Source of the DNA: Nitrosomonas europaea
GTDB lineage: Bacteria; Pseudomonadota; Gammaproteobacteria; Burkholderiales; Nitrosomonadaceae
Direction of reading: 5' to 3'
DNA length: 31,762 bases
Assembly: GCF_900167395.1 (NCBI RefSeq)
Contig: NZ_FUWK01000034.1
Coordinates: 1-31,762, forward strand
Position 1 is the first letter of the stretch. Each line of letters starts with the position of its first letter. The position numbers and the translations under genes are program-made. Under the pieces are notes generated by a model. That model did not search any database. It was not told the DNA's origin and worked only from the letters and a program-made list of their open reading frames with translations. Below are positions 1 to 30,586 of the stretch, in pieces.

Positions 1-314
1 CCCAGTGGCTCACTGAAGCACTGGACCAGCAAAACCTTCAACTCATTACTCCCCTCAGGAAAAACATGAGGCCTGTGCCTCGTACCAGGTTCGAGAAAGT
101 CATTCTGCGTCGCCGTTCCCTGATTGAAACCGTCTTTGATGAATTGAAGAATCTTTGCCAGATCGAGCATACCCGACACCGCTCTCTCTTCAATTTTATC
201 GTTAACCTAATGGCTGGTATCGTCGCTTACTGTTTGTCCGATAACAAACCAACTTTGAATCTGACCAGGGTCAACAGCCTGGCTAAAGCTTAAGGGCTTA
301 TCCCGAACTCAGGT
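1..314 (+). mobile_element. Right-hand end of an IS982-family insertion sequence; the element continues beyond the left window edge
   Basis: The transposase frame is open from base 3 to the TAA at 291-293. The adjacent EAL-domain ORF breaks off within about 20 nt of the transposase stop. The sequence CCCGAACTCAGGT at 302-314 looks like a terminal repeat. The exact terminus (about 310-320) is not determined. Confidence 0.65.
3..293 (+). CDS. IS982-family DDE transposase, C-terminal part (5' end outside the window)
   Basis: There is no stop upstream of the listed Met at 66 (QWLTEALDQQNLQLITPLRKNMRPV...). The motifs LITPLRKNM and RRRSLIETVFDELKNLCQIEHTRHRS, plus the hydrophobic tail LMAGIVAYCL, are typical of IS982-family transposases. 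Confidence 0.7.
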   Translation, partial: QWLTEALDQQNLQLITPLRKNMRPVPRTRFEKVILRRRSLIETVFDELKNLCQIEHTRHRSLFNFIVNLMAGIVAYCLSDNKPTLNLTRVNSLAKA

Positions 315-2853: not shown

Positions 2854-4089
2854 TCAGAAACGGTAGGAAGCCTGTACAGCGAACAGATTCCAGTTTTTTC
2901 CGGTATGGGACATATCGGGATTATCTAGCGGAGATAGCCAAGCCGTGCCGTTGATCCGATGATATTCTGTACTCAACATGATGGCAGGCGTAATATTCCA
3001 GCGTAATCCTACCGTGATATCCTTAGCGTAGTAATTATGTGCCGGGTATAGGTAACCGGTACTGGCAGAAAATTTTTTACCACTACGGTCTTTCCTATTA
3101 GTGAACAACAAATCATAACGCAACACTGCTTCCCAGTTTGGATAGAACCGATAGACGCCTTGCAGATAAAAACTTTCTCCCGTAAAACTTTGCTGAAAAG
3201 CTGCATGGTTACCAAAATCTTTCCATGCGAGATGGCGTAGCGCATATTCAGACGTTATGCTCCAACGCTCTGCGTTGTATTGAGCGGATAAAATTAAAGG
3301 GGAGAATCTGAATGAGCCATTAAGTAGAGTATCATTGTAACCTGGGCTATACCCAACATTAGCTTGGGCTCCACTTATTGCCAGACGGAGTTTTCCATCT
3401 GCCTGCTCATAAAGTATCCGACCAATATATGATAACTTTGTTTTAAGATCGCCACGGTGTTGTAATGATCGTAACACCGATATCTCAGTATCATGACCGT
3501 CTACTTGGGGAAAAGCAGCTCCAAATTGTACGGTAATATTTCCCCAGTCCGCGCGCGATTCTCCGTATACCTGAATCCCATCTGAAGCTAGTGCAAGATT
3601 GCGAGTACGATCGAAATAGATTGACTGAGGCAGCAGTATGCTCGGGCGAGTAAATGGTACATCGCGTGTATCGTTATAAAACCCGAATGGATTCTTCATC
3701 CTGCCCAGACGTATGCCGATTTCAGCTGCAGGTGTATTGGCGAAATTATAATCTAGAAAACCGAAATCAATGTGGATGCCACCGTTGCTGCCTTCTCCAG
3801 CTCTGCGATGGAGTAATTGACCGGATAATTGCAGTTTTGGTGAGGGACGCAAAGAAGCCGTCAGGCCAATTTCCCGGAAATCGAGACTGCCAGAATCGTT
3901 ACTGTGACCAAAAAAATTGTTCTTGTTCGTCTTGATGTAGCCCTGGCTCAGAAAACCATTCAGTTTGAACAGATCCAGGTTTTGTAATTTAGGCAGCTCT
4001 TCCGCCAGAACGGATCTGGCCAGAAAAATCAGTGACAGGGCTGAGCTGCCTAAAAAGAAAGCTATAGTTGAAAATCTGCTGTTACTCAT
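2854..4089 (-). CDS. Outer-membrane beta-barrel (porin-like) protein of unknown family
   Basis: It has a signal peptide (MSNSRFSTIAFFLGSSALSLIFLARSVLA), alternating beta-strand-like sequence and a C-terminal ...QASYRF aromatic terminus typical of OMPs. I prefer the start at 4089 because its ATG sits inside the GATGAGTAA stop region of the upstream gene (8-nt overlap). The track start at 4116 is the alternative. Confidence 0.65.
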   Translation of the reverse strand: MSNSRFSTIAFFLGSSALSLIFLARSVLAEELPKLQNLDLFKLNGFLSQGYIKTNKNNFFGHSNDSGSLDFREIGLTASLRPSPKLQLSGQLLHRRAGEGSNGGIHIDFGFLDYNFANTPAAEIGIRLGRMKNPFGFYNDTRDVPFTRPSILLPQSIYFDRTRNLALASDGIQVYGESRADWGNITVQFGAAFPQVDGHDTEISVLRSLQHRGDLKTKLSYIGRILYEQADGKLRLAISGAQANVGYSPGYNDTLLNGSFRFSPLILSAQYNAERWSITSEYALRHLAWKDFGNHAAFQQSFTGESFYLQGVYRFYPNWEAVLRYDLLFTNRKDRSGKKFSASTGYLYPAHNYYAKDITVGLRWNITPAIMLSTEYHRINGTAWLSPLDNPDMSHTGKNWNLFAVQASYRF

Positions 4090-4537
4090 CGATATGAACG
4101 ACCTGGACACTATCATTAATCATACTTCCACTCAAATAACCAATTGCACCCGGTGTTGATGCAATTCTGGCACGCATTTCTTCTTCAGTATGTACGACAA
4201 ACGGTGCTTGTCCGGTTCCGGAATAGACCATGCGATCCCACGCTGATCGCAATTGGTAAGGAAAAATATTCAGTTTCTGTTTTGTAAAAGTGCTGTGTAA
4301 TGGCGCGTCATCCGGCAAAACGAACACTCTGACGGGCAACCCATCCTGCCAAGTTCTGAGACGCATGCCAAAAATGGAACGTAACAGATTTTTGGAAAGA
4401 TAGTTCGAGTTGACGCCGGGATGGGTGATAACTTCGACCGAACCGTCAAAGGATAAGGCATTACCTGCGAAAGAAAATGTGACCAGCAGGGTAAGAAAAA
4501 GAATACCTCGGAGCCAGTAACTAAAGAATCCCATCAC
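4082..4537 (-). CDS. Small secreted periplasmic protein resembling a phosphate-binding-protein (PBP-like) domain
   Basis: It has a signal peptide (MMGFFSYWLRGILFLTLLVTFSFAGNALS). The mature region (ITHPGVNSNYLSKNLLRSIFGMRLRTWQDG...PGAIGYLS) resembles PstS/PBP-like substrate-binding folds. This assignment is by eye only. Confidence 0.55.
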   Translation of the reverse strand: MMGFFSYWLRGILFLTLLVTFSFAGNALSFDGSVEVITHPGVNSNYLSKNLLRSIFGMRLRTWQDGLPVRVFVLPDDAPLHSTFTKQKLNIFPYQLRSAWDRMVYSGTGQAPFVVHTEEEMRARIASTPGAIGYLSGSMINDSVQVVHIDE

Positions 4538-4564: not shown

Positions 4565-5356
4565 TTATTCCGATATATAAACATTATCGGTATACGCTGT
4601 TTTAAGCGTTTTCTGATGTATGCAGGCCAGGTTCATGGGCCATATTCTTCCGTGATCGGTAATAAGCTCCCAGAGTGAACGATGATCCTGATACATTCGA
4701 TCAAGTAAATCAGGCAGATAAAGATAATAAGGAGTACGAAGACCATGATAATCGGCTGGTGGGCCGATTGGATTCATTTGTAAGCTGTAAAAACCTAGTA
4801 ATTTGTTTAAAGCTGGCTCCATGGCCGAAATTAAATGGTAGATATTATTTCGTGCACATAATTGTATAAGTCCGACAACAAGCCCGAGCATCGGATGCGG
4901 AAAGCGACGGCGTTCCTGTGCTTTGCATCCTATTTCAGTAGATTGTGATAGCATATTGCGCTCGCCTTTTCGTTTGAAAAAATCGCTGAGAATAGCAAAG
5001 CGCGATACTTCAGTAGTATGTTTCCGAGACGATGAATCCAGAACAAAGCCAGGATAAAAATGAGTGTTGAGCTCTGTCGGAAATTTATCCATAGGATCGA
5101 GCGGATTGGGCAGGATCAACCTGGTTGTGCCAATGAAAGTATTGGTTGGCCGATGGCGCAATAAAAAATGGATTGAGTGACTGTCATATTGATCACTCTC
5201 CAACTCGTTTGGATAATTGTTAGTGTCAAACCCGGGAATGACATTGTGAACACACAAAATCCGATAGCGTAAATCGAACACCGTTTTAAGTAATTCCGGT
5301 GTGTCGGCATCGATGATTTCGAAATACTGATGAAAAGCTGCTTCGATATCGTTCAT
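4565..5356 (-). CDS. PEP-CTERM/exosortase system-associated acyltransferase (GNAT-fold, LuxI / N-acyl amino acid synthase-like; TIGR03694-type)
   Basis: Family-typical N-terminus YFEII.A.TPELL..VFDLRYRILCVH...ESDQYDSHSIHFLLRH...IGTTRLILP. An EVSRFAI motif is analogous to the autoinducer-synthase core. An AGGAAA RBS lies 5' of the ATG. Confidence 0.75.
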   Translation of the reverse strand: MNDIEAAFHQYFEIIDADTPELLKTVFDLRYRILCVHNVIPGFDTNNYPNELESDQYDSHSIHFLLRHRPTNTFIGTTRLILPNPLDPMDKFPTELNTHFYPGFVLDSSSRKHTTEVSRFAILSDFFKRKGERNMLSQSTEIGCKAQERRRFPHPMLGLVVGLIQLCARNNIYHLISAMEPALNKLLGFYSLQMNPIGPPADYHGLRTPYYLYLPDLLDRMYQDHRSLWELITDHGRIWPMNLACIHQKTLKTAYTDNVYISE

Positions 5357-5454
5357 ACTTTTCCTTGATCAGGCTGTATTTAAGAAGATCTGAGATTCAG
5401 ATCAGATTTTATTACTGGAATCAGTTTCCAATTCAGGGAATATATGAACGATAT
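5346..5454 (-). promoter_or_regulatory. Structured 5' leader of the acyltransferase gene, with an anti-start-codon helix enclosing two hairpins
   Basis: A perfect 12-bp inverted repeat joins ATATCGTTCATA (5346-5357, covering the start codon at 5354-5356) to TATGAACGATAT (5443-5454). Inside it are the hairpins GATCTGA-gat-TCAGATC (5387-5403) and TGGAA-tcagt-TTCCA (5416-5430). Confidence 0.5.
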
Positions 5455-5572
5455 GACTTTATATTTTTTCCCTGGGCACCGGCATCATCGTTATTTGTTA
5501 TATTTTTCCGTATATTTACATGTTATTTAGCCTGAATTCAGACAAACATGTCGTTAAAATAAAACGTACTTT

Positions 5573-5601
5573 ACTATACTTGTGTCGTCAAAATATGACA
5601 A
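5573..5601 (-). promoter_or_regulatory. Candidate sigma70 promoter for the acyltransferase operon
   Basis: The minus strand reads TTGTCA-17 nt-TATAGT (-35 at 5596-5601, -10 at 5573-5578). This would give a leader of about 210 nt that contains the structured element. Confidence 0.4.
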
Positions 5602-5729
5602 GCCGATGTTTGTTGAATAATGGTTGACTGTTTTCGATATCGGGAGCTCATTTATCGAATGACCACGGCTTTTTTACCGGTATCAATTCTCCCTTTTATT
5701 TACTGCCGAAATTCAGAATCAGATAAAAA

Positions 5730-7589
5730 TTAAACTTTTATCGGGTGATGCTGTTTGAACCAATATTCCAGCATCATCAGCAGCCATACCATCGTGCCGT
5801 GATAACTGGCATGTTCATGAAGATGCTGATCAAGCAGCTGGTCGATGAAATCGGTGCGTATGATGTTGCGTGATTTGAGGTCACTCAGACTGTCTGCAGC
5901 AATTTCCCGCAAAGGTCTGTGTGTCTGGAGCCAGACACCGAACGGCAAGCCAAACCCCTGTTTTTGTTTGGTAATGATCTCATCCGGTAAAAAACCACGT
6001 AACGCCTGTTTAAAGAAATAACGCAACTGCGTTCCTTTCAATTTCTGTTCAGGAGGAAGCGCGAGAGAAAAAGCGAGTATTTCATCATTAACAAACGGGA
6101 AAGCCACTTCCATGCCGGCCAGATGACAGGCCTGGACAACTTTTGGGAAATCATTGTCTGCCAGTGTGAATTTCCAGTCGAAGGCAAGCATGCGGTTGAT
6201 CAGGCTGCGTGCATGAGACACATCCTGATAGGTTCGTTCAATCAGCAAAGCGGGTTGCGCTGTATCGATCTTTGCCAGTAATTCCGGTGAAAATACAGTT
6301 TCAAACCCATAATGTGCCAGCAGATTATAAGTCTCCATGCGATGAGGCATGGGAACCGTTGCCTGTGCGACATAGCTTCGCGCCTTGCGCAGCAGTTTGG
6401 GTCCTTTGTTCTCTGGAAGAGACAAAATAAAGGGGGAAAGCAGGTAATTTCTCAGGGGTGCCGGGATTTTGTCGTAAAGTGAAAAAATATATTGTTTTGC
6501 GTAACGTACATTACCACCGAACAGCTCATCACCCCCATCGCCACCGAGTAGCAAGTCGAGTCCGTCATTTCTGGCCATGCGCCCGCAGTAATAAGCCGGA
6601 AGCGCCGATGCATTACCAAAAGGTTGATCGAAGACCGAAGCAATCAACGGGATCGTTTCTACGACATCGTCTGGTGTGACATAGTACTCATGGTGATCGG
6701 TCGCGAAATGCCGGGCGGCAATACGTGCGTAATGCATTTCATCGTAGCCGGTGGCTTCAAAGCCGATTGAATAGGTTTTGGCGGGTTCACCCGTGACTTC
6801 TGTCAATATCCCTGCCAGAGTGGAACTGTCTGTCCCCCCGCTCAGAAATGTACCTGCTTTCTGACCCTGTACCGCTTCACTGACACTTTTTCTGAGCAGG
6901 GAGAGAAATTCCTGTTGAAGCTCGGGGAAGGGGCGTTTTATATCTTCATCAAACCGGATTTGCGTATAACGGCCGATTTCCGTGTGGCCATCGTGGAAAT
7001 GCAGATACTCACCAGGAAGCAGGCGCTTCTGGGCCAGATAGATGGTATCCGGCCCCGGTATCATGTGAAAGTAAAGGTAGTTGAGCAGCCCTTGCGGATT
7101 GATTTCAGTATTGGCCCGGGGATGGGTGAGCAGGGCATCGGCAGAAGTGCCAAATAAAATTCCGTCGTCACCCAGCGACTGGTAATAAAGTACGTGTGTA
7201 CCCAGTGGATCGATGGCCAGAGCAACTTCACGTGCATGGCTGTCCACGATGCAGCAAACGAATTCACCAGCGAGCTCGGAGAAGGCTTGCCTGCCTTTCT
7301 GCTTCCACTGATCTGCAAGTGCCGCTGCCATTCCTCTGGCATCGATGGCTGTCTGCAGATCTGTATTCCGGGATTTTATCCTTCCCCAGATCCCTACCAG
7401 TAAGCCTTCTTTTTCATACAGATGCGAATGGCTTGTTTTTGCGGCGACGGAAAGAGCGGCATTGCCCTGTACCGCTGTCTGCACAGGATTGCTGTCAAAA
7501 CGAATCAGCGAACCGGTCATGCGATCAATGATCTGCTGATTTTCGATTGCCAGGTGATCTGCTCCCAGCCAGCCACATATTCCGCTCAT
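5730..7589 (-). CDS. Asparagine synthetase-like glutamine amidotransferase (exosortase A system-associated amidotransferase 1 type, TIGR03108-like)
   Basis: It has an N-terminal Ntn glutaminase domain (MSGICGW...) and a C-terminal PP-loop synthetase domain (FLSGGTDSS). A GAGGAG RBS precedes the ATG. Confidence 0.85.
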   Translation of the reverse strand: MSGICGWLGADHLAIENQQIIDRMTGSLIRFDSNPVQTAVQGNAALSVAAKTSHSHLYEKEGLLVGIWGRIKSRNTDLQTAIDARGMAAALADQWKQKGRQAFSELAGEFVCCIVDSHAREVALAIDPLGTHVLYYQSLGDDGILFGTSADALLTHPRANTEINPQGLLNYLYFHMIPGPDTIYLAQKRLLPGEYLHFHDGHTEIGRYTQIRFDEDIKRPFPELQQEFLSLLRKSVSEAVQGQKAGTFLSGGTDSSTLAGILTEVTGEPAKTYSIGFEATGYDEMHYARIAARHFATDHHEYYVTPDDVVETIPLIASVFDQPFGNASALPAYYCGRMARNDGLDLLLGGDGGDELFGGNVRYAKQYIFSLYDKIPAPLRNYLLSPFILSLPENKGPKLLRKARSYVAQATVPMPHRMETYNLLAHYGFETVFSPELLAKIDTAQPALLIERTYQDVSHARSLINRMLAFDWKFTLADNDFPKVVQACHLAGMEVAFPFVNDEILAFSLALPPEQKLKGTQLRYFFKQALRGFLPDEIITKQKQGFGLPFGVWLQTHRPLREIAADSLSDLKSRNIIRTDFIDQLLDQHLHEHASYHGTMVWLLMMLEYWFKQHHPIKV

Positions 7590-7716
7590 ATCATCTCCTC
7601 ATTCGATATTGAATTCATGTCATTCCCGGATATGATTTCAACATGATTTGTTCTCTACATTGTTGTGAATCATTATTTGTCACACATGTGGTGTGTGATT
7701 GGTGTTTTCCGCGGCA

Positions 7717-7732
7717 TGCCCGCAGAGTGCCG
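7717..7732 (-). promoter_or_regulatory. Candidate sigma54 (-24/-12) promoter upstream of the amidotransferase gene
   Basis: The minus strand reads CGGCAC-TCTGC-GGGCA against the consensus TGGCAC-N5-TTGCA. The GG and GC dinucleotides are correctly spaced. The site is about 130 nt upstream of the start at 7589, and a sigma54-dependent activator (PrsR) is encoded in the same cluster. Confidence 0.4.
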
Positions 7733-7789
7733 TTTTCAGGCGGTCAGCCGGACCATCTACTGCAGCAGATGCGGGTTTGATAAATTTTC

Positions 7790-9019
7790 TCAGATCAGGA
7801 CTTCCAGCGAAGCAGGGTGACTGAGAAAAGCGGTGGGGCTGGCAGTCAGCCCGTAGGCTCCCGACTGGAACACGACGACCAGATCCCCGGGTTCGGCCCT
7901 GGACAGTTCCATCCGGTCGGCAAGCAGATCCAGCGGCGTACAAAGAGGTCCTACTACTGAAACGATTTCGGTTTCATCGATTTTCATTTTATTGCCAATG
8001 GCAACCGGATAATTTTTGCGAATGACCTGGCCAAAATTTCCGGATGCCGCCAGATGATGGTGCAGGCCGCCGTTGGTGACTAGAAAAGTCTGTCCTCTCG
8101 ATATTTTTTTTTCCAGTACGCGGCAAACATAAATACCTGCTTCTGCCACGATGTATCGCCCCAGTTCGATCACGAACCGGATAGCTGAGAATTGAGAGGG
8201 AATCTCTGCCAGCAACCGTTGCAGATTGGTTCCCACAGCATTCAAGTCCAGCGGGCTCTCACCGGGGAAATAAGGTACGCCAAACCCGCCTCCGATATTG
8301 ATGGCACGAACAGGTACGGGTGAGGTAGAAGCAAGTTGTAAACCCAGTTGCAGTGTTTTTTCATGGGCTTCCCGCAAGGCTTCGACCCGGAGATTCTGTG
8401 ATCCGCTGAAAATATGCAATCCCTCAAAATCGAACCTGAGCTGTGCGATACGTTGCAGTACTGCCGGAACACATTCAGCATCGATACCAAACTGTTTGGA
8501 ACCTCCTCCCATTTTCATTCCGGAAGATTTCAGCTCGAAATCAGGGTTGACCCGTACTGCGACTTTGGGCTGGAAACCGGTCTCTTCTGCCAGTTGCGCA
8601 ATCGTTTCCAGCTCGTACTCGGATTCCACATTGATGACGATACCCGCTGCAATGGCACATATCAGTTCCTGACGACTTTTTCCCGGCCCTGCAAAACTGA
8701 TGTTTTCGGGTGTAATGCCAGCATCCAGTGCCACTTTCATTTCGCCAACCGAAGCCACATCCATACCATCCACCAGCCCGGCCAGATGCTGTACTACGGC
8801 GGGCATAGGGTTGGCTTTCATGGCGTAATGCAGATGAATACCTGCCGGTAAATGCTGCCTGAGGAATTGAATACGTGCAGAGATCAGCTTGCGATCGTAA
8901 GCATAGAAAGGGGTGGTTCCAATACGTTGTGCCAGGCGCGTGAGTGGAAGATCGCCGATGACGAGACAGTGGTTGCGTATCGGAAACTGGGTCATCGGTG
9001 CATGTTTGGGATGCGTCAT
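7790..9019 (-). CDS. PLP-dependent decarboxylase, Orn/DAP/Arg decarboxylase fold (exosortase A system-associated type, TIGR03099-like)
   Basis: It has the PLP-lysine motif HYAMKANP, the substrate motif GPLCTPLD and the C-terminal motif SGAYG. Its start overlaps the ligase stop (ATGA at 9016-9019). Confidence 0.85.
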   Translation of the reverse strand: MTHPKHAPMTQFPIRNHCLVIGDLPLTRLAQRIGTTPFYAYDRKLISARIQFLRQHLPAGIHLHYAMKANPMPAVVQHLAGLVDGMDVASVGEMKVALDAGITPENISFAGPGKSRQELICAIAAGIVINVESEYELETIAQLAEETGFQPKVAVRVNPDFELKSSGMKMGGGSKQFGIDAECVPAVLQRIAQLRFDFEGLHIFSGSQNLRVEALREAHEKTLQLGLQLASTSPVPVRAINIGGGFGVPYFPGESPLDLNAVGTNLQRLLAEIPSQFSAIRFVIELGRYIVAEAGIYVCRVLEKKISRGQTFLVTNGGLHHHLAASGNFGQVIRKNYPVAIGNKMKIDETEIVSVVGPLCTPLDLLADRMELSRAEPGDLVVVFQSGAYGLTASPTAFLSHPASLEVLI

Positions 9020-10599
9020 GATTCTCCTGCCTGGAAAGCCTGCTGAAATTCACCAGCCAGCATTTTCCGGTCTATTTTTCCATTCGGATTACGGGGCAGA
9101 CTGGTTTGTCTCAATTCGATCAAAGCGGGTTGCATGAAAGCAGGCAAGTGCTGTTTGCAAGCCGATTGCAGCACATCCCGGTCGAGCGCGAATCCGGTTC
9201 TGGGAACGGCCACGACCACGATAGCCTGGCCGAGTGTAGGGTGGGGAACCCCGAAAGCGGCCGCTTCAGCAACTTTTTCGGTTGCATAAATGACTTCTTC
9301 CACTTCAGTCGGGCTGACGCGGTAGCCGGAGGTTTTGATCATATCGTCGCGTCGGCCGATGAAATACAGATAACCTTCATCATCCATGCGCACCGTATCA
9401 CCCGACCAGACCGCAAGTTCGGGAATGGTCAATCCGGATTGACGGGGAGTCAGCGGCCGGAAGCAAGCAGCCGTTTTATCCGCATCGTTCCAGTAACCCA
9501 GCGAAACGAGCGGCCCGCGGTGTACCAGTTCACCCGGTTCACCCGGTGCGCAATGGGAACCATCCTCGCGCAGTACCATGACTTCGGCATTAGGAATCGC
9601 TTTGCCCATGGAATCCGGTCGTTTGTCCACTTCCCCGGGAGGGAGGTAAGTTGAGCGAAAGGCTTCGGTCAGACCATACATCAGAAAAATCTGTGTATCG
9701 GGTAACGCACTGCGCAAATGTGCCAGAGTCGCGCGGGGCATTGCGCCGCCCGAATTAGTGATGTAGCGCAGACTCTGCGCATCTTTCCAGTCCAATTGCG
9801 CCAGCTGCGCCCACAATGGCGGCACTGCAGCCAGTCCGGTCACCTGTTCCTGTTTAACCGTGGTGAGGATATCGCGCGGCAACAGGTAATTCATCAAAAT
9901 GGCAGTGGCTCCGGTGTAAAACGCAGTATTCAGTTGATTCAATCCATAGTCGAAGCTGAGCGGCAACACTGCCAGTATCCGATCATCAGGCCGGTTATTC
10001 AGATACCGGGAAACACTTATGGCGCCTGTCACCAGATTGCGATGGGAGAGCACCACTCCCTTGGGTTTGCCGGTACTTCCCGAGGTATACAAAATTGCAG
10101 CCATATCGCTGTCGATGCAGTCCGGTAACCGTGCAGCATCTGAAAGTGTCTGTGTCTGTCTCCATGAAACGACATTCAATCCGGGAAGTGATGCTTTGTG
10201 CAGATCACCGGTGATGATCACAGTATGCAGATCATGACATTGCGGTAATACCGGGCTGAGCAGATCGAGTCTCTCGGCAGAGGTTATCAATATCCGGACA
10301 TTACAGTCTTTGAGGATATAGGCGACCTGTTCGGCTTTGAGCAGCGGATTGACGGGAACGAACGCGCCTCCTGCCGCGGATGCGCCAAACAGGGCAATGA
10401 CCGTTTCGAGTCGTTTCTCGAGATAGACGGCCGAACGTTCTCCGCGACCCAGCCCGAGCGTATGCAAAGCGCTGGCAATCGATTGCACTGCTTCAGATAA
10501 TGCCGCATAGGAGAGATGCCGTTTCTGATCGATCAATGCTGTGGAATCGGGATACCGGGCAGCTGACTGATAAATCAGCTCATGAAAAAGATTGGACAT
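9016..10599 (-). CDS. AMP-forming acyl-CoA ligase / adenylating enzyme (exosortase A system-associated type, TIGR03098-like)
   Basis: It has the AMP-binding signature LYTSGSTGKPKGV, plus YGLTE and a C-terminal PRNPNGKIDRK. Its length is typical of the ANL superfamily. Confidence 0.85.
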   Translation of the reverse strand: MSNLFHELIYQSAARYPDSTALIDQKRHLSYAALSEAVQSIASALHTLGLGRGERSAVYLEKRLETVIALFGASAAGGAFVPVNPLLKAEQVAYILKDCNVRILITSAERLDLLSPVLPQCHDLHTVIITGDLHKASLPGLNVVSWRQTQTLSDAARLPDCIDSDMAAILYTSGSTGKPKGVVLSHRNLVTGAISVSRYLNNRPDDRILAVLPLSFDYGLNQLNTAFYTGATAILMNYLLPRDILTTVKQEQVTGLAAVPPLWAQLAQLDWKDAQSLRYITNSGGAMPRATLAHLRSALPDTQIFLMYGLTEAFRSTYLPPGEVDKRPDSMGKAIPNAEVMVLREDGSHCAPGEPGELVHRGPLVSLGYWNDADKTAACFRPLTPRQSGLTIPELAVWSGDTVRMDDEGYLYFIGRRDDMIKTSGYRVSPTEVEEVIYATEKVAEAAAFGVPHPTLGQAIVVVAVPRTGFALDRDVLQSACKQHLPAFMQPALIELRQTSLPRNPNGKIDRKMLAGEFQQAFQAGES

Positions 10600-10641
10600 C
10601 GATCAGTATGTACAAGTCATGAAATGATTGGATTCTACAGC

Positions 10642-12000
10642 CTATTTGAGCCCGTGACGATTCATCAGGTCATAAAGAGTGGGGCGGGTAACCCCTAGAA
10701 GCTCTGCTGCCCTGGCAACATTGCCATTTACCCGTGCCAGCACTTTGATGAGCATCTCGTGTTCAGCCTTGTCTCTGACTTCACGCAAGGTGACTGGCGC
10801 AAAACTATCGGCTGCCGGTTGTAATCCGAGATCGGCAGCAGTGATTTGTGAGCCTTCTGCCATGATGACTGCGCGTTTGATGCAGTTTTCGATTTCGCGG
10901 ATATTTCCCGGCCAGGAATAGCTGCCGATTGCATCCAGTGCATCCTGGCTGAAATTGAGGGATTGGCGTTTTTCTTTTACCCGGAACTGGTTTTTGAAGT
11001 GATGCGCAAGTAAGACAGCGTCGCCGATACGATCGCGAAGCGCCGGAATATGGATACTGATTTCACACAGACGATAATACAAATCCTCGCGGAAGGTACC
11101 GGCCTCGATCATTTTTTTCAGGTTCTGGTGGGTTGCGCAGACGATTCGTACATCTACCGGGATCAGCTCCCTGCCACCGATGCGTTCGATGACGCGCTCC
11201 TGCAGGAATCTCAGCAGTTTTGCCTGTAACGATAGCGGCAAATCACCGATCTCATCCAGGAAAAATGTACCTCCCTGTGCCAGTTCGATTTTGCCTGGTG
11301 TCTGTTTGACTGCTCCTGAGAAGGCACCTTTTTCATAGCCAAACAACTCTGCTTCCAGCAGGGATTCAGGAATGGCCGCACAATTGACTGCAACCATGCG
11401 TTTACTGTTCCGGTCGCTCAACTGGTGAAGTGCCTTGGCCAATACTTCCTTGCCGGTTCCACTTTCACCCAGCAGGGTGACCGTAACGTCGGAAGACGCG
11501 ATACGCTCGATTTGCTGGCATATTTTGACCATACCAGGATCATTGGTGATGAGTCCGGGAATGGCAGTGCTTGAAGAAGATTTCAACAGTTCGCGATTTT
11601 CGCGCTGCAACCGGTGCAAATAGAACGCCCGGTTTACGATCAGGCTGAGCACGTTGGCATCGAGAGGTTTCTGGTGAAAATCATATGCACCCATATTGAT
11701 TGCTTTCAGTGCATTTTCGTGATTCTGGTTGCCCGTCAGCACGATTACCTTGGTATCAGGTGCCACGGCAAGAATCTGCTGCAAAGTTGCCAATCCTTCC
11801 GTTGCACCATCCGGATCAGGTGGCAATCCCAAATCCATGGTCACGACAGCAGGCTCATGCCGGCGGACTTGTGCAAGCGCACTTTCACGATCTGAGGCAA
11901 CAGCCACATTGCAATCATCGAAACTCCAGCGTAACTGTTTCTGGAGCCCTGGATCATCTTCTATTACGAGCAGTTTTTTTTGTATCTGATTTGCATTCAT
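10642..12000 (-). CDS. prsR: PEP-CTERM-box response regulator transcription factor PrsR (NtrC-family sigma54 enhancer-binding protein)
   Basis: The receiver domain has the characteristic MDLGLPPDPDGATEGL insertion. The AAA+ domain carries GESGTGKE, the sigma54-contact loop GAFSGA and FFLDEIGD. A C-terminal Fis-type HTH is present (AAELLGVTRPTLYDLMNRHGL). Confidence 0.8.
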   Translation of the reverse strand: MNANQIQKKLLVIEDDPGLQKQLRWSFDDCNVAVASDRESALAQVRRHEPAVVTMDLGLPPDPDGATEGLATLQQILAVAPDTKVIVLTGNQNHENALKAINMGAYDFHQKPLDANVLSLIVNRAFYLHRLQRENRELLKSSSSTAIPGLITNDPGMVKICQQIERIASSDVTVTLLGESGTGKEVLAKALHQLSDRNSKRMVAVNCAAIPESLLEAELFGYEKGAFSGAVKQTPGKIELAQGGTFFLDEIGDLPLSLQAKLLRFLQERVIERIGGRELIPVDVRIVCATHQNLKKMIEAGTFREDLYYRLCEISIHIPALRDRIGDAVLLAHHFKNQFRVKEKRQSLNFSQDALDAIGSYSWPGNIREIENCIKRAVIMAEGSQITAADLGLQPAADSFAPVTLREVRDKAEHEMLIKVLARVNGNVARAAELLGVTRPTLYDLMNRHGLK

Positions 12001-12244: not shown

Positions 12245-14626
12245 TCAATGATCCGCTCTGAATTCGGCCGGATGGAGATACAAAATCTGTTGTGCTGCGC
12301 CGGGCATGAATGATACTCGCCTTCCTGCCACCCAATCGGAATGACCGCTGCCGTAGTAAGGAGAAAGTGGATGGCCGCTCTGGCCTCCCGGCATTTCGAA
12401 ATAACCCTGTTCTTCCTCGCCAGGTGCCACGACGAAGCGCAGCGAAGCACCAAAATCGGGTGCCTGAACACGTGGCATGTGGTGATCGCCGGGTAACTGG
12501 TCGGCAGGCATGTTCAGCCATGCGGCAATCCATGACGGCAGGGCGCGACTGAACGGGTGCCGGATATCGGCGGTATTTTCTTCTCCCCAGTTGCGTGCCA
12601 CTATGCCGCCAGGCTGGGCTTGCATCTGTTCTGCTATCCGGCGTGCGCATGCTGCCAGCATGCTGTCCCAGTCACTGTCATCGGCGGGCAATAAATGAAG
12701 CGGCCGTTGTTCGATTAGTTTCCATACCGCATGTTCGGCCTGGCTAAGGCGTGGTATTTCAAATTCAGGATAATCAGATTTTACTTTGGCAGTTAAACCG
12801 CTGAGCACCTGTTTCATGACTTCGAGACGAAAACTGCGTACGATCCGGTAAGCAACTGATTGCACAGAAGCATGTCCGTTCCAGTCAAGCAGCACTTGTT
12901 GCATTTCGTTGCGCCATACGGTGGATGGTGTTTTTTGCAATATTTCATCCAATAGTTGCTTCCAGCGAGCGAGAAGCAGTGCACGATCATCCAGTTGGAT
13001 GGCGAGCAGATCTGAGGGTGAAAAGTGATCGTGCGCATATAATTCATCCCGGATCTGCCGGCTGCGGGCACCGAGCTCATATCCACCATCTCCCAGCTTG
13101 CTTAATAAGGCGCCATCGATCATTCTTGAATTGCCGTTCCAAAGGCGCATATCCGGTGGATTGATAACCAGCGGGTAATCAGCAGGTGCAAGCCAGCCAT
13201 TCCAGCCTGTAGACTGTTTGCTCCAGTCTGCAGGCAGTCCCGGATCATAGTTACCTGTGCGCTGGGGAATACGGCCGGCAATCGTCCAGGCGATATCCCC
13301 ATTTTTGCTTCCGGCAATGAAATTTTGTGCCGGGATACCCATGTTCCAAGCAATAGCTGCCGCTTTCTCCAGGTTGTCAGCCTGTTCCAGTTCGACGATA
13401 TCGAAATTGACCGCACCAGGCTGGTGCGCAGTCCAGACCAGTGCCAGAGGAGTACCGTCAAAATCCTGTGCAAGGATTGGTCCCCATTCGGTTTCGCGGA
13501 TTTCGAGGGTTTCGTCGGGCGCACCCCGCACATGCAATGTTTCACGCCATATTTTTACAGATTTCCATTCACCCTGGCTGATATAGCGAGCGGGATTTTC
13601 CGGATCGGGATTTACTCTGACCCAATCGGCAAAATCGCCGTAAGAATTGGTGAATCCCCAGGCGATATGGCGGTTGGAGCCAGCAACGATAGCCGGTGTA
13701 CCCGGAAGACTGACGCCGATCACATCGATCTTTTGGTTTGCATGTCTGGCATCCGGGTAAATCAGCCGGGTACGAAACCATAAACCGGGTACTCGCAAGG
13801 TCAGATGCATATCGTTGGCCACCAGTGCACTGCCACTCGTCAGGGGTCCTCCCACGGCAAATCCATTGCTGCCAACCGAGGGAGATTCCTGGAAACCGTT
13901 ATCCGCTAAAGCCTGTTTGCTGGTGGAACGTAAATCGAAGTCGGTAGCAGAGGGGTAAGGTGGCCACTCAAAATAACTGCCGTCCAGTGGTGCATCCCAC
14001 TCGCCTCCACTGGCCGTCAGGAACCGATAGGCAGATTCCGGCAGGGAAGCATGCATCATCGACAATCCCAGTTCACGATCAAAGTTGTTTCCCTGCAGCG
14101 TCATGTACATGGCCAGTACGATCAGCAGGCTGTCTTCACTTTGCCAGGCACGGGGCATGGTTTGCGTAAGCAGGTAACCAAACTGTCTGATCCTGAGACT
14201 GTCCAGTCCCGTATTGACGCCATCCCGATAAGCCTCGAGCAAACGGAGCTGATCTTGTGGCAGTATTTTCAGCATGGTCTGTGCCCGGGCACGCATGCGA
14301 TGCACCCGCGCTTTGCGATCAGCCGGCAACGCAACCGTACCGAATAATTCTGCCAGTTCTCCGGCAGCCTTGCGGCGCATCAGGTCCATTTCCAGGAAAC
14401 GTTCCTGTGCATGGATAAAACCCAGTCCACGCGCCAGATCGAGCCGATTCCCGCCATTCAGCGTCACCGTGCCGAGAGCATCGCGTTCGACTGTTACGAT
14501 ATCGGTTAGCCCGGGAACGGATTGTTCTCCTTCATAAACGGGCAGGCTGCCTTTTAAAAGCGACCAAGCCGTAAGTAATATGACCATCACAAGTGCGGAC
14601 AGAAAAAACAGGGATTTACGCAACAT
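12245..14626 (-). CDS. Penicillin acylase family (S45 Ntn hydrolase), PvdQ/QuiP-like N-acyl-amide (AHL) acylase candidate
   Basis: It has a signal/anchor sequence (MLRKSLFFLSALVMVILLTAWS). The length of about 790 aa fits an alpha-spacer-beta architecture. A beta-subunit nucleophile context (GSNGFAVGG) is present. Confidence 0.8.
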   Translation of the reverse strand: MLRKSLFFLSALVMVILLTAWSLLKGSLPVYEGEQSVPGLTDIVTVERDALGTVTLNGGNRLDLARGLGFIHAQERFLEMDLMRRKAAGELAELFGTVALPADRKARVHRMRARAQTMLKILPQDQLRLLEAYRDGVNTGLDSLRIRQFGYLLTQTMPRAWQSEDSLLIVLAMYMTLQGNNFDRELGLSMMHASLPESAYRFLTASGGEWDAPLDGSYFEWPPYPSATDFDLRSTSKQALADNGFQESPSVGSNGFAVGGPLTSGSALVANDMHLTLRVPGLWFRTRLIYPDARHANQKIDVIGVSLPGTPAIVAGSNRHIAWGFTNSYGDFADWVRVNPDPENPARYISQGEWKSVKIWRETLHVRGAPDETLEIRETEWGPILAQDFDGTPLALVWTAHQPGAVNFDIVELEQADNLEKAAAIAWNMGIPAQNFIAGSKNGDIAWTIAGRIPQRTGNYDPGLPADWSKQSTGWNGWLAPADYPLVINPPDMRLWNGNSRMIDGALLSKLGDGGYELGARSRQIRDELYAHDHFSPSDLLAIQLDDRALLLARWKQLLDEILQKTPSTVWRNEMQQVLLDWNGHASVQSVAYRIVRSFRLEVMKQVLSGLTAKVKSDYPEFEIPRLSQAEHAVWKLIEQRPLHLLPADDSDWDSMLAACARRIAEQMQAQPGGIVARNWGEENTADIRHPFSRALPSWIAAWLNMPADQLPGDHHMPRVQAPDFGASLRFVVAPGEEEQGYFEMPGGQSGHPLSPYYGSGHSDWVAGRRVSFMPGAAQQILYLHPAEFRADH

Positions 14627-15684: not shown

Positions 15685-15994
15685 GTCCCTATACCGGATA
15701 ACATCCGGTGTCATTCATTCCCGTTCGGAAATGCCTAATCTACGGGCTGATTTGTATCGGGTTACAGTGAATAATAATTAATTCATTGAACTTTATATCT
15801 GAAATTCTACCTGATTCAAGAAGAGGTGGCAGTGCCCGGATATGCCATTTCGATTATTTGTTTGTATTGGGTTTTCTGCTTTACGGGTGTGTAACTGTGG
15901 AGTAGAGTAAATAACAGGCGCCTATTCATTAACTCAGAAAGCGATTTGCGTTTGCAAATCATTAACAACCATAACCTGAAAGGAGTGGTAAATC

Positions 15995-16282
15995 ATGAGT
16001 AATAGAGAAGCTTATATCAAGAAGGCTGAAGCGCAGTTAAAAGAGTGGGGGGCACAAATCGATCTCCTGAAAGCAAAAGGAGAAAACCTGGCTGCTGATA
16101 CCGAAATCGAGTTCAAGAAAAAATTAGATGAGGCAGAAGAAAAACGAGCTGAACTCTCATCTTATCTGGATCAGCTGGCAGATAAAACAGACAGTATCTG
16201 GGATGACATAAAGGATGAAGCAGAAGAAAAATGGAATACTGTCAGCAAAACATTCTCCGATTTTGTCGATAAATTCAAGTAA
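15995..16282 (+). CDS. Small acidic coiled-coil protein (hypothetical, stress-protein-like)
   Basis: An AGGAG RBS precedes the ATG. The sequence is a heptad-like charged helix throughout, with no signal peptide. Confidence 0.6.
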   Translation: MSNREAYIKKAEAQLKEWGAQIDLLKAKGENLAADTEIEFKKKLDEAEEKRAELSSYLDQLADKTDSIWDDIKDEAEEKWNTVSKTFSDFVDKFK

Positions 16283-16317
16283 ACAGACCGAATCTTCCAA
16301 CTAAAACGGAGGGGACT

Positions 16318-16485
16318 ATGTTTAATATGGCATTAGTTTTCTTTCTCATTGCTGTTCTGGCTGGAATCCTGGGTTTTGCAGGTATTGCAGGAACGCTTGC
16401 ATGGGCAGCAAAAGTGTTGTTCTTTGCAGGTCTGATCCTCACGGTAGTTTTTTATCTGCTGGGCAAAAGAACACCCCCTGTTTGA
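16318..16485 (+). CDS. DUF1328/UPF0391 (YtjA-like) small membrane protein, 55 aa; not in the supplied ORF track
   Basis: My translation is MFNMALVFFLIAVLAGILGFAGIAGTLAWAAKVLFFAGLILTVVFYLLGKRTPPV*. It contains the hallmark GILGFAGIAG motif and is preceded by a GGAGGGG RBS. Confidence 0.7.
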   Translation: MFNMALVFFLIAVLAGILGFAGIAGTLAWAAKVLFFAGLILTVVFYLLGKRTPPV

Positions 16486-16572
16486 ATCGGTATTCCCGAT
16501 AAGAATTCAGGTAATTGATCACGCCATACGAGGATGTTTGTATGTTCTGATTTTAAACAAAGGAGTAGAAAA

Positions 16573-16836
16573 ATGAAAAAAACCTATCTGCTGTCAACCG
16601 TTCTTCTTATGTTCCTGTCATCTTCCGTCATCGCAGAGGAAACTCTCACCGAGAAACTGGAAACAAAGACAAATGATGTTGAAAGGGCAACCAATAAAGC
16701 GATCAATCGTGCACAGGAAGCCACCTGCACAGACAGTGATGCTGAATGTTTGAAGCAAAAAGCAAAGAACAGGGCAAGTGAAGCTTATGACGCTACTAAA
16801 GACAAAGCATCTGAAATCAAAAATAAAGTTGACTGA
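16573..16836 (+). CDS. Small secreted Lys/Glu-rich protein (hypothetical)
   Basis: The internal Met at 16573 follows an AGGAG RBS and opens a clear signal peptide (MKKTYLLSTVLLMFLSSSVIA/EE). The track start at 16534 lacks both features. Confidence 0.55.
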   Translation: MKKTYLLSTVLLMFLSSSVIAEETLTEKLETKTNDVERATNKAINRAQEATCTDSDAECLKQKAKNRASEAYDATKDKASEIKNKVD

Positions 16837-16858
16837 TACAAGGTCATCTCATCTTTAT

Positions 16859-16903
16859 CGGGCAGCAACCACTGATTGTGGCTCTGCCCGTCAGTTCTTT
16901 CTC
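16859..16903 (+). terminator. Rho-independent terminator between convergent genes
   Basis: CGGGCAG (16859-16865) pairs with CTGCCCG (16884-16890), with an inner CCAC/GTGG helix. A T-rich run (tcagttctttctc) follows. Confidence 0.5.
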
Positions 16904-16983
16904 ACCCTTTTCACAAAACCAGAATGGTTAGTATCATGCCTGGGTGGCTCCGGAGGCCAGCAGGTGAAGTCCCCTCGTGTTGA

Positions 16984-18108
16984 TCATGCCATGGAGCTGA
17001 TCGTCCTGCGGAAGCGGGCAAGTGCCAGCGTGAAAAAAATACTGCCAATCGCAAGCAAAGCGAGAAATTCCGGCCAGACGATACCAAAATCTGCACCACG
17101 ATAGAGAATGGCCTGAGCAAGCGAGACGAAATGGGTGGTTGGTGCTGCAAGCATGAGGTACTGCACTGCCTCGGGCATACTTTCACGCGGTGTCATGCCA
17201 CCGGACAGCATTTGCAGTGGCAGCAGAATAATGATCATCAGCAGCCCCATTTGCGGCATTGAACGTGCTACCATGCCAAGGAAAATGCCCATCGAGGTCG
17301 TGGCGAACAGATGTAATGTCATGCCCATGACGAACAGCCCGATCGAACCTTCGATCGGTACGTTGAGCAAATCCTGTACGACAAAGACGAGTGAGGCAGT
17401 AGCCACGATGGCGACGACCAGACCCATCGACCATACTTTGGCCAGCATGATCTCGAAAGGGGTCAGTGGCATGACCAGCAGATGTTCGATAGTGCCGTGC
17501 TCACGTTCACGGATCAGTGCTGCGCCGGTGAGGATGATGGATAGCATGGTAATGCTGTTGATGACTTCCATCACCGAACCAAACCATACCGAGCTCAGAT
17601 TCGGATTGAAGCGTGCACGTATTTCAAGTTCTGCCGGCCAGGCAGGAAGCATCCGATAACGTTGAGAGAATGCGGTGACTTCACCCGTAACGATATTCTG
17701 GATATAGCCGCTGCCGATAAAGGCTTGTGACATACGCGTCGCATCGACATTGAGCTGAATGGCAGGCCGGCGTCCAGCCAGTACATCGCGTTGAAAATCA
17801 GGCGGAATATCGAGCACGAAAGTGTACAGACCGGTATCCATACCCGGATCGGCAGCGTACTGCTCGATGATGAGTGGTGGCAGGAAATGGGGAGGATAAA
17901 AGGCATCGATGATACGCAATGACAGAGGTGATCGATCTTCATCGATGATGGCGACAGGGGCCTTGTGCAATGATTCCGGCAGGCCGGTGGCAGTCAGGTA
18001 CACCTGGCCGGTGAACGCGAACAGAATCAGGAACAGCATCAGTTTGTCACGTCCCAGGCTGCGCAATTCCTTGATCCCAAGGTGAAAGGCATTGAGCAGG
18101 GTGAGCAT
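16984..18108 (-). CDS. yhhJ: ABC-2 type transporter permease, YhhJ-like
   Basis: It is 374 aa, with an N-terminal TM, a large periplasmic loop and a C-terminal cluster of five TMs (ABC-2 architecture). It lies immediately downstream of the RbbA-like gene, as in the E. coli yhiI-rbbA-yhhJ operon. Confidence 0.75.
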   Translation of the reverse strand: MLTLLNAFHLGIKELRSLGRDKLMLFLILFAFTGQVYLTATGLPESLHKAPVAIIDEDRSPLSLRIIDAFYPPHFLPPLIIEQYAADPGMDTGLYTFVLDIPPDFQRDVLAGRRPAIQLNVDATRMSQAFIGSGYIQNIVTGEVTAFSQRYRMLPAWPAELEIRARFNPNLSSVWFGSVMEVINSITMLSIILTGAALIREREHGTIEHLLVMPLTPFEIMLAKVWSMGLVVAIVATASLVFVVQDLLNVPIEGSIGLFVMGMTLHLFATTSMGIFLGMVARSMPQMGLLMIIILLPLQMLSGGMTPRESMPEAVQYLMLAAPTTHFVSLAQAILYRGADFGIVWPEFLALLAIGSIFFTLALARFRRTISSMA

Positions 18109-29930: not shown

Positions 29931-30279
29931 TATGGGTAGGTTCAAATCGTTGAATTCTATTCAATGCCCCACGTAAGGAATCGCGGGTAATAGTCATATC
30001 GTAATCGATTTGAAGACCCATCCAGAATTCAGCGGTATTACCAAAATACCGCGCCAGTCTGAGGGCGGTGTCGGTAGTAATTGCACGACGCTCCCGTACG
30101 ATATCGTTGATACGGGTGGCCGGAATTTGCAATGCCAAAGAAAGTGCATGAGGAGTGATTTTTAACGGCATCAGAAATTCTTCGCGCAGAATCTCGCCAG
30201 GGTGAATGGGGTGCAATTTTCCACCTTCAGCCACATCACTGAAATCCATGTTTTCCAACTCTTCGATATGGATAGTCAT
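29923..30279 (-). CDS. higA: HigA-family antitoxin (XRE-type HTH)
   Basis: HPGEILREEFLMPLKITPHALSLALQIPATRINDIVRERRAITTDTALRLARYFGNTAEFWMGLQ is the classic HigA/VapI core. An alternative start lies at 30249. Confidence 0.85.
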   Translation of the reverse strand: MTIHIEELENMDFSDVAEGGKLHPIHPGEILREEFLMPLKITPHALSLALQIPATRINDIVRERRAITTDTALRLARYFGNTAEFWMGLQIDYDMTITRDSLRGALNRIQRFEPTHIS

Positions 30280-30291
30280 AAATATAATTTT

Positions 30292-30573
30292 TCAATGATA
30301 ATCGGTAATCTCGACATCAAATACATCGCCTGCTTCGAATCGGAAACAAATTCGCCATTGATCGTTGATGCGAATGCTCCATTGTTCATTCCGGTTACCA
30401 GACAATTTTTCAAGCCTGTTTCCAGGTGGGATACGCAGTTCCTCAATTGATGAAACACGATGTAACTGCGCCATTTTTCGACGAGCAACCCGGAGAATTT
30501 CTGGTGGCAGTCGCCTGATCTTTTCATTAGCAAATAAAGCAGCTGTTTCTTTCGTGGCGAAAGTTTTGATCAT
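30292..30573 (-). CDS. higB: HigB-family toxin (RelE/ParE superfamily mRNA interferase)
   Basis: MIKTFATKETAALFANEKIRRLPPEI...WSIRINDQWRICFRFEAGDVFDVEITDYH is typical of plasmid-maintenance killer HigB. The toxin gene precedes the antitoxin gene, which is the HigBA order. The track start at 30579 (MFMIK) is also possible. Confidence 0.85.
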   Translation of the reverse strand: MIKTFATKETAALFANEKIRRLPPEILRVARRKMAQLHRVSSIEELRIPPGNRLEKLSGNRNEQWSIRINDQWRICFRFEAGDVFDVEITDYH

Positions 30574-30586
30574 AAACACAATGATA

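Follow-up and report, generated by a model that had tools for sequence, protein, structure and literature searches.

Two probable accessory modules of the exosortase A/PEP-CTERM system, with a BtrK/VinN-like enzyme pair and an N-acyltransferase operon, lie side by side in Nitrosomonas

A stretch of 31,762 nucleotides from Nitrosomonas europaea (assembly GCF_900167395.1, contig NZ_FUWK01000034.1), which was analysed as a whole and is here called the window, carries on its minus strand a cluster of genes related to the exosortase A (XrtA)/PEP-CTERM system. A preliminary description of this DNA had read five of them as an autonomous cassette for a small molecule. [quoted passage not shown] The close spacing described before is also correct. 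Only 42 nt (10600-10641) lie between prsR and the ligase gene, a distance at which co-transcription of the two is the simplest assumption; the stop codon of the ligase gene and the start codon of the decarboxylase gene overlap in ATGA at 9016-9019, by which the two are translationally coupled. The boundaries of the cassette, however, did not stand, since the tightly spaced co-directional run goes on downstream to position 314 and four genes had been overlooked. Three of them follow NAS: p150, as we call a secreted protein of only about 150 aa (4082-4534), which lies 27-30 nt downstream of NAS; an OprO/OprP-like outer-membrane porin (411 aa, 2854-4089), assigned from the names and domains of its homologues, whose start overlaps the end of p150; and, 29 nt past the porin, a membrane sensor with the Pfam domain order transmembrane (TM) segment-dCache_3-TM-PAS-GGDEF-EAL (314-2824), whose EAL domain is cut by an insertion sequence (IS). 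The fourth is an Ntn acylase of the penicillin-amidase family (793 aa, 12245-14626; PF01804, 449 bits) upstream of prsR. What kind of unit, or units, do these genes form?

Seventy-four reference-genome loci around NAS homologues served as a comparison set, and the window proteins were mapped onto each of them. NAS, p150, the porin and the GGDEF/EAL enzyme follow each other in this order in 57 of the 60 loci with enough downstream DNA; at the locus L072 the sensor gene is present and fragmented, and clear exceptions are a metagenome-assembled genome (MAG) of Nitrotoga and one of Methylococcaceae. In Nitrosospira multiformis the four-gene unit stands alone among housekeeping genes, bordered at one end by RNase R, RlmB, L9 and DnaB and at the other by chorismate synthase, and two further loci (L084, L086) show it in a similar housekeeping setting. 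A gammaproteobacterial MAG (L075) keeps the trio of p150, porin and sensor, divergent from NAS. As for the upstream side, ligase and decarboxylase genes are found nearby in 25 of the 55 loci with enough upstream DNA, in several arrangements: acylase-prsR-ligase-decarboxylase-AsnB-like as in the window (13 loci), prsK-prsR-ligase-decarboxylase-AsnB-like (7), the same without asnB (3), prsR-ligase-decarboxylase-AsnB-like without prsK and acylase (1), and the ligase-decarboxylase pair only (1). The asnB gene is absent in L021, L068, L070, L079 and L087, and prsR in L079 and L087. Such a comparison of TIGR03694 neighbourhoods had been proposed in the preliminary description; it shows NAS fixed with p150, porin and sensor, but not the five genes as a conserved unit.

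The upstream genes have other companions. In Nitrosospira the order is a TIGR03013 XrtA/PEP-CTERM glycosyltransferase, PrsK, PrsR, ligase, decarboxylase and the AsnB-like protein, at a locus apart from NAS; judged, as for all NCBIfam memberships reported here, against the curated cutoff of the family, the transferase reaches 638 bits (cutoff 393) and PrsK reaches 899 bits with TIGR02916 (cutoff 300). Among Nitrosomonas, prsK adjoins prsR in 10 loci, and the TIGR03013 transferase is in the fetched flank of nine of these. Because the same genes follow the TIGR03013 transferase and prsK in Nitrosospira and in other Nitrosomonas, gene order and family assignment identify prsR-ligase-decarboxylase-AsnB-like (module A) as a module tied to PrsK/PrsR within the exosortase A system, and what looked like a stand-alone cassette is a derived state. 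PrsR of the window is itself a clear member of TIGR02915, an equivalog family (798 bits, cutoff 503), and has the architecture of REC, sigma54-AAA+ (Sigma54_activat) and HTH_8, and no PrsK was found beside it or elsewhere in the window, either by NCBIfam and Pfam or by tblastn with a TIGR02916-positive probe. The absence of prsK, derived in the europaea/eutropha/mobilis-type lineage, was already visible in the study of Haft (2006; PMC1569441), where PrsR is encoded in tandem with PrsK in 12 of 13 genomes and N. europaea is the one exception, with PrsK (NE0377), PrsR (NE1124) and EpsH (NE1797) apart in Table 1.

The window was also searched for the missing partners. When every ORF of appreciable size in the 31.8 kb was scanned with Pfam and NCBIfam, there was no exosortase, glycosyltransferase, PrsK, acyl carrier protein (ACP) or PEP-CTERM protein, as had been stated before, and probes of PrsK, the TIGR03013 transferase and ACP from the relatives L082 and L083 had no tblastn match in it. 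A six-frame search of the window for PEP-CTERM tails left a single candidate, which is an artefact, an ORF lying out of frame inside the ligase gene. Nor is the cluster the edge of an extracellular polysaccharide (EPS)/exosortase locus, as it is flanked by uracil-DNA glycosylase and efflux pumps on one side and by OsmC, holA, lptE and leuS on the other. An identical NAS sequence, with the same gene order, is present on a 2.81-Mb chromosome (CM135170.1, GCA_054182965.1) and on several metagenome contigs, and all named relatives of NAS are from Nitrosomonas or Nitrosospira. One related locus shows an irregularity: in L083 (5250-14910, from a 2.43-Mb ammonia-oxidiser assembly), Bac_transf, prsK, prsR and the AsnB-like gene are split by apparent frameshifts, which are probably errors of long-read assembly. 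Only at this locus is the module followed by an ACP and by another AsnB, which is full-length and of the glutamine type.

If module A belongs with PrsK and NAS heads a module of its own (module B: NAS, p150, porin and sensor), are the two simply unrelated neighbours in Nitrosomonas? They do occupy separate loci in Nitrosospira, and in the window they have separate promoters and a spacer of 373 nt. Against this, their adjacency has been kept over a deep divergence of Nitrosomonas, in which NAS proteins share 46-95% identity, and both modules carry NCBIfam models defined by co-occurrence with exosortase. Moreover, in an uncultured lineage (L079-L081, L087) the ligase and decarboxylase genes join NAS-p150-porin-GGDEF/EAL directly, with neither prsR nor asnB, and because this pair by itself joins the NAS module (in L079 and L087 among others), modules A and B are probably not unrelated. 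We therefore regard a mere chance adjacency as very improbable. The reading that we prefer, with a probability of roughly 0.55, is that the region consists of two XrtA/PEP-CTERM accessory modules which became joined in Nitrosomonas, and that the europaea-type lineage lost prsK together with the priming glycosyltransferase.

What may the enzymes of module A do? The ligase belongs to TIGR03098, "acyl-CoA ligase, exosortase A system-associated" (867 bits, cutoff 592), and its gene directly adjoins that of the TIGR03099 decarboxylase (620 bits, cutoff 478). The preliminary description had assumed decarboxylation of a basic or diamino acid. This is disfavoured, since among proteins of solved structure the decarboxylase comes closest to BtrK, which acts on L-glutamyl-[BtrI ACP] in the making of butirosin (286 bits, E 5e-84), and diaminopimelate (DAP) decarboxylases reach at most 163 bits each; the score with TIGR01048 (lysA), 254 bits, is under the cutoff of 298. 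The PLP-binding lysine in AMKAN of the window protein aligns with that in SLKAN of BtrK. The ligase, on its part, has VinN (3wvn) as its best single-domain match in the PDB, with 225 bits, against about 174 bits for FadD5 and fatty-acyl-CoA ligases, and it matches adenylation domains of nonribosomal peptide synthetases (NRPS), among which the higher total of LgrA is the sum of two domains. Thus, by sequence, it resembles the amino-acid adenylating type (NRPS/VinN) more than the fatty-acyl ligase type. All 118 ligase orthologues retain two residues, the Asp of the A4 motif SFDYG and an Arg within YGLTEAFRST, the latter standing at the pocket position equivalent to Ile330 of PheA when placed by anchoring on the YGxTE motif. 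In NRPS adenylation domains, the A4 Asp binds the amino group of the substrate. In VinN, Asp230 serves for the α-amino group and Ser299 and Arg331 for the α-carboxylate (PMC11284099).

Precedents for such a pair of enzymes are known. In vicenistatin biosynthesis, VinN attaches 3-methylaspartate via its β-carboxyl group to VinL, an ACP, and the bound residue is then decarboxylated by VinO, which is a PLP enzyme (PMC11284099). The same has been proposed for BolO, BolC and BolN of Burkholderia gladioli with aspartate, resulting in β-alanyl-ACP; deletion of bolN ended production, and feeding of β-alanine gave no rescue (PMC7756342). By analogy, the most economical reading is that Asp or Glu would be tethered by its side-chain carboxyl group and decarboxylated to a β-alanyl or γ-aminobutyryl thioester. 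This model needs a carrier protein, which would therefore be encoded elsewhere. Only in L083 was an ACP found, at a distance of three genes past the AsnB-like one. Because chemistry of the BtrK/VinN type needs a carrier, and this is absent from the window and lies near the module in L083, it is doubtful that the genes are an autonomous unit. With the carrier-dependent pathways BtrI/BtrJ/BtrK (butirosin), VinN/VinL/VinO (vicenistatin) and BolO/BolC/BolN (bolagladin) the pair may be compared, besides the similarity to BtrK and VinN, in the coupling of its genes, and the ligase Asp and Arg, as placed by motif anchoring, would suit an amino-dicarboxylate substrate; unlike those pathways, the window offers no ACP, polyketide synthase, NRPS or aminoglycoside context, and the setting is an EPS/protein-sorting system.

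When the families proposed in the preliminary description were checked against their cutoffs, PrsR, ligase, decarboxylase and acyltransferase all held, but the AsnB-like protein did not. It scores 276 bits with TIGR03108 against a cutoff of 817 (816.9), in a match that starts only at residue 89, and its Nitrosospira orthologue, with 295 bits, is under the cutoff as well. In Pfam it matches Asn_synthase with 276 bits and GATase_7 weakly, and among solved structures only a distant hydroxyamidotransferase comes near it (E 6e-17). The protein begins with MSG[IL]CG (MSGICG in the window) instead of MCG, so that the Met-Cys start which supplies the nucleophile is missing, and this beginning is conserved among the orthologues together with the PP-loop SGGTDSS. 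Elements of the glutamine site are lost in all of 12 orthologues: the segments RLSIxD (Arg49) and SDxEV (Asp98) are deleted, and Asn74-Gly-Glu76 is changed to WGR, the numbering being that of E. coli AsnB, with which AsnB2 of L083 agrees as a second reference. Since the Arg49, Asn-Gly-Glu and Asp98 elements are lost, use of glutamine is unlikely, and the protein would be an ATP-dependent amide-forming enzyme rather than the TIGR03108 amidotransferase it had been taken for. Its family has no profile of its own and travels with prsR, ligase and decarboxylase.

NAS is a member of TIGR03694 (296 bits, cutoff 112) and also matches PF13444 in Pfam. Its AlphaFold2 (AF2) model has a predicted local distance difference test score (pLDDT) of 84 and a predicted template-modelling score (pTM) of 0.81, and Foldseek with this model finds the acyl-homoserine lactone synthases BjaI, LasI and TofI at E ~2e-7, then FeeM at 5e-6. 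Judging from the model, NAS is an N-acyltransferase of the LuxI/FeeM fold, of the Gcn5-related N-acetyltransferase (GNAT) type. Its description as a relative of autoinducer synthases was therefore right, and because of this fold an N-acyl amide product is reasonable as well. That such a product had never been identified, as was also stated, is wrong for TIGR03694. On heterologous expression, the family gives long-chain N-acyl amino acids, according to papers citing Craig et al. (2011), and a Neisseria homologue (NmNAT) gives N-acyl amides in E. coli. Thus the product class of the family, long-chain N-acyl amino acids, is already known, and for the window orthologue it is predicted by homology, with acyl-ACP as the expected acyl donor. 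In Methylomonas LW13, disruption of the NAS homologue "ExoAT" removed a polysaccharide band (PMC11072679). Among the loci compared, two or three tandem NAS paralogues stand ahead of p150-porin-GGDEF/EAL in L051, L052, L056 and L060 (Nitrosospira/Nitrosovibrio), which suggests diversification of the acyl-amide product within one module.

Could modules A and B together build an anchor for sorted proteins? This possibility extends the linker hypothesis of Haft: the two modules would make an N-acylated ω-amino compound, and its free amine or carboxylate would accept PEP-CTERM proteins cleaved by exosortase A, so that the product would serve as a lipid anchor and not as a signal. A β-alanyl- or γ-aminobutyrate (GABA)-type unit would indeed present a free amine, and an amine acceptor has a precedent in rhombosortase, which attaches a moiety containing glycerophosphoethanolamine to GlyGly-CTERM proteins. 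Module A stands beside prsK and the priming glycosyltransferase in relatives, and the four named families were all defined by their co-occurrence with XrtA. Loss of NAS removes an EPS phenotype in Methylomonas (PMC11072679). On the other hand, N-acylation would block the very amine that is needed unless a second one is present, no chemistry joins NAS products with PEP-CTERM proteins, and NAS is most constantly accompanied by a porin and by an enzyme of c-di-GMP turnover instead of the sortase. Taking both sides, we consider the building of an anchor unlikely.

The regulation of the cluster is the next matter, since the preliminary description had placed it under a sigma54 activator. All intergenic regions of the cluster were scanned for GG-N10-GC sites fitting TGGCACG-N4-TTGCW and for motif 1 ending in TTTACA, which precedes the sigma-54 element at target promoters of PrsR; the upstream regions of prsR, ligase, asnB and NAS, both in the window and in about 30 related loci, showed neither a credible −24/−12 site nor motif 1, in a scan run without a positive control. 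NAS has instead a promoter of the sigma-70 type. In the 373-nt leader and promoter region between asnB and NAS (5357-5729, minus strand), TTGTCA-17-TATAGT, from 5601 to 5573, is the best sigma-70-type match within a 15-kb region and sits exactly on a block conserved across the europaea-type loci. Because NAS has this conserved promoter of its own, the NAS operon is, as far as its sequence tells, a separate transcription unit. Two ACGACA boxes about 34 nt apart flank the −10 element and are conserved across Nitrosomonas in an alignment with the regions of L005-L025, and a conserved block AATATAAAG...ATATTC lies about 110 nt ahead of the NAS start codon across Nitrosomonas loci; the boxes and the AATATAAAG-N-ATATTC block look like candidate binding sites of a regulator. 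Two other explanations of the conserved leader were rejected: for a riboswitch, the sole Rfam match at E ≤ 1 was a spurious one to a miRNA, and for a Pho box, the conserved block TTGTCAT...GACGACA is without a CTGTCAT direct repeat at 11-bp spacing.

Now the original proposal can be weighed as a whole, namely that five genes under PrsR and sigma-54 form an autonomous cassette which makes a diffusible N-acyl amine or amino-acid signal independently of exosortase. In this scheme the ligase would activate a carboxylate, taken here as a fatty acid, the decarboxylase would act on a basic or diamino acid, the AsnB-like enzyme would form an amide, and NAS would add the acyl group. The genes are co-directional and tightly spaced, exosortase genes are absent within 31.8 kb, NAS has a LuxI-like fold, and ligase and decarboxylase re-join NAS in L079 and L087, all of which would suit such a cassette. 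However, the decarboxylase is BtrK-like and not DAP- or ornithine-like, and the ligase is of the amino-acid type and not of the fatty-acyl type, and no carrier protein is in the window. Besides the lack of a sigma-54 promoter, the sigma-70 promoter of NAS lies in the 373-nt spacer that separates it from asnB. Nor do the five genes form a conserved unit, with asnB and prsR variably absent and NAS elsewhere in Nitrosospira, and the genes of relatives adjoin prsK and the XrtA/PEP-CTERM glycosyltransferase. An exosortase-independent cassette is thus quite improbable.

The genes that follow NAS bring in another possibility. The sole named similarity of p150 is to the PstS-type family PBP_like_2; it is weak (E 5.5e-4, below the Pfam cutoff) and covers half a domain only. 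No sequence relative of p150 was found in the PDB. Among its homologues, which amount to 2,989 cluster representatives, proteins of about 140-200 aa that stand by themselves predominate; P0186 was considered as a p150-porin fusion and rejected, and in L079 p150 is present as an uncalled gene. The porin has a signal peptide and the C-terminal end ...YRF. In the window it has no Pfam match at E < 0.001, with Porin_5 coming only at E 0.11, and PF07396 is found in homologues of 55-60% identity, whose names are porin or OprO/OprP family. From here, one may suppose that NAS is an OlsB-like aminolipid synthase and that p150, porin and dCache sense phosphate or another anion, so that a phosphorus-free lipid and c-di-GMP are tied to the supply of phosphate and the adjacency of module A is incidental. 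NAS matches PF13444, a family to which N-acyltransferases of the OlsB type belong as well, the porin homologues are annotated as OprO/OprP, and a PhoR-type kinase adjoins the module in L085. Nevertheless, the PstS similarity is sub-threshold, the conserved NAS promoter has no direct repeat resembling a Pho box, pst or pho genes are not near in most loci, and the NAS family is phylogenetically tied to PEP-CTERM systems. Such a role in phosphate supply appears distinctly unlikely.

The sensor at the end of the operon is best described from its intact orthologue (L001, 12533-15454), which has 973 aa, two TM helices around a periplasmic dCache domain, GGDEF with an RxxD I-site, and the EAL motif EVLLR. 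In the window the EAL domain covers only profile positions 7-109 of 236, and the 3′ end of a DDE transposase of the IS4/IS5 type (3-293, plus strand; PF13612, 80 bits) follows. How the IS element splits the EAL domain can be seen in L002 (15043-16456): a protein of 836 aa with the whole GGDEF and half of the EAL domain, then the transposase, then a separate EAL fragment of 131 aa. On a near-identical metagenome contig the sensor gene is intact and encodes 973 aa, and two other contigs end exactly at the point of insertion.

Coming back to the preferred reading of two accessory modules joined in Nitrosomonas, from family memberships, synteny, motif states and promoter type we infer substrates, a carrier and a connection between product and c-di-GMP as follows. 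A VinN/BolO-like enzyme would use the side-chain carboxyl group of Asp or Glu to load this acidic amino acid onto a carrier encoded elsewhere, and a BtrK/BolN-like PLP enzyme would decarboxylate the tethered residue to a β-alanyl or γ-aminobutyryl thioester. The AsnB-like enzyme, probably dead as a glutaminase, would spend ATP on an amide bond with a carboxylate. In module B, a separate operon that a sigma-70 promoter would drive, NAS is supposed to N-acylate an amino compound with a long-chain acyl group, and p150 as a periplasmic binding-type protein, the anion-type porin and the dCache sensor may handle and sense this amphiphile, with a c-di-GMP output to biofilm and EPS.

Several points weigh against this scheme. 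Since a carrier protein is absent from the window (no PP-binding ORF by Pfam and tblastn) and from most related loci, homology is what carries the tethered-substrate model. The Asp and Arg of the ligase were equated with Asp230 and Arg331 of VinN by motif anchoring, not by structural alignment to VinN. NAS alone yields N-acyl α-amino acids in E. coli, so module A is not needed for its reaction. The nearest named relatives of p150 and the porin are phosphate-related (PstS, OprO/P), and binding of an acyl amide by p150, porin or dCache is a supposition; the single-sequence AF2 model of p150 is poor, with a pLDDT of 57, too low for a fold search. The scan for sigma-54 sites and motif 1 included no PEP-CTERM gene as a positive control. 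Finally, that xrtA, prsK and PEP-CTERM genes lie elsewhere in this genome is presumed from N. europaea.

It might be possible to go one step further and regard module B as a self-contained acyl-amide signalling circuit of ammonia oxidisers, in which the NAS product would pass the porin, be bound by p150 and be read by dCache, setting c-di-GMP and thereby aggregation dependent on PEP-CTERM and EPS. Module A would possibly allow N-acyl-β-alanine or N-acyl-GABA to be made, and in the europaea-type lineage the periplasmic acylase upstream would degrade the signal. As a whole this idea is doubtful. The acylase has an N-terminal signal/TM segment and retains the autoprocessing motif G|SNGFAVGG. Its nearest solved structures are D-succinylase and glutaryl-7-aminocephalosporanic acid (glutaryl-7-ACA, GL-7-ACA) acylase, and its match to PvdQ is weak. 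Its place ahead of prsR is confined to the 13 europaea/eutropha/mobilis-type loci, where it stands exactly in the position that prsK has in other Nitrosomonas, and its tie to the PEP-CTERM/NAS system is uncertain.

Some observations concern other parts of the window. A HigB-like toxin gene (30292-30579; PF05015, 69 bits) stands beside an HTH_3 antitoxin-like ORF (29923-30279) on the minus strand, and the two are a type II toxin-antitoxin pair right after the efflux operon of the resistance-nodulation-division (RND) type. The segment around 15700-17000 is AT-rich (GC 0.43), with an unusually strong positive AT skew that runs on into ABC-2 efflux genes; small plus-strand ORFs in it (15995-16282 and 16534-16836) have weak coiled-coil-type Pfam matches only. 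At the window edge, an ORF for a TonB-dependent receptor (214 aa, 30818-31721, minus strand) matches only the C-terminal β-barrel part, and a 91-aa ORF overlaps upstream of it, so the receptor gene may be frameshifted or truncated there.

How does the cluster compare with systems already known? It is not a new kind of system, and its families are already named in routine annotation. With the XrtA/PEP-CTERM accessories of N. europaea ATCC 19718 (PMC1569441) it shares TIGR02915, TIGR03098, TIGR03099 and TIGR03694, as well as a prsR apart from prsK. It differs from that set in its source, taken in this analysis for a different species, in its sensor gene split by an IS, in its AsnB-like gene, which is not TIGR03108, and in its NAS, which is 77% identical to the N. 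europaea-labelled protein; among reference genomes the MAG Nitrosomonas sp. PE_soil1 comes closest, with 95% identity in NAS. With the known synthases of N-acyl amino acids, NAS has in common its membership in TIGR03694 and the LuxI/FeeM GNAT fold, while NAS of the Nitrosomonadaceae differs from them in being fixed in an operon with p150, porin and dCache-GGDEF-EAL, an operon for which no description was found in the searchable literature. A LuxI-fold synthase encoded next to a binding-type protein of the periplasm and to a membrane sensor whose ligand domain is periplasmic invites an analogy with quorum sensing by LuxI/LuxR and LuxP/LuxQ, and the combination of an outer-membrane protein, a small one in the periplasm and a diguanylate cyclase of the inner membrane brings to mind YfiB, YfiR and YfiN of the YfiBNR type, which links the envelope with c-di-GMP. 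These analogies are functional only: homology to LuxR, LuxP, LuxQ, YfiB or YfiR was not found by Pfam, Pfam scans of the window gave no LuxR-type receptor (Autoind_bind/GerE), and the proposed output is c-di-GMP and not transcription.

Aggregation and biofilm formation of Nitrosomonas underpin nitrification in wastewater treatment and in soils, and the PEP-CTERM/exosortase system is implicated in the formation of flocs. For this system, the vague annotation of a "ligase and decarboxylase" can now be turned into a testable proposal of carrier-tethered decarboxylation of Asp or Glu, whose carrier is to be sought elsewhere in the genome. The true conserved partners of NAS, namely the porin, p150 and the enzyme of c-di-GMP turnover, offer a route to the role of widespread lipid amides. 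Most worth pursuing is this conserved operon of NAS, p150, porin and c-di-GMP enzyme and, alongside it, the BtrK/VinN-type model for the ligase and the decarboxylase.

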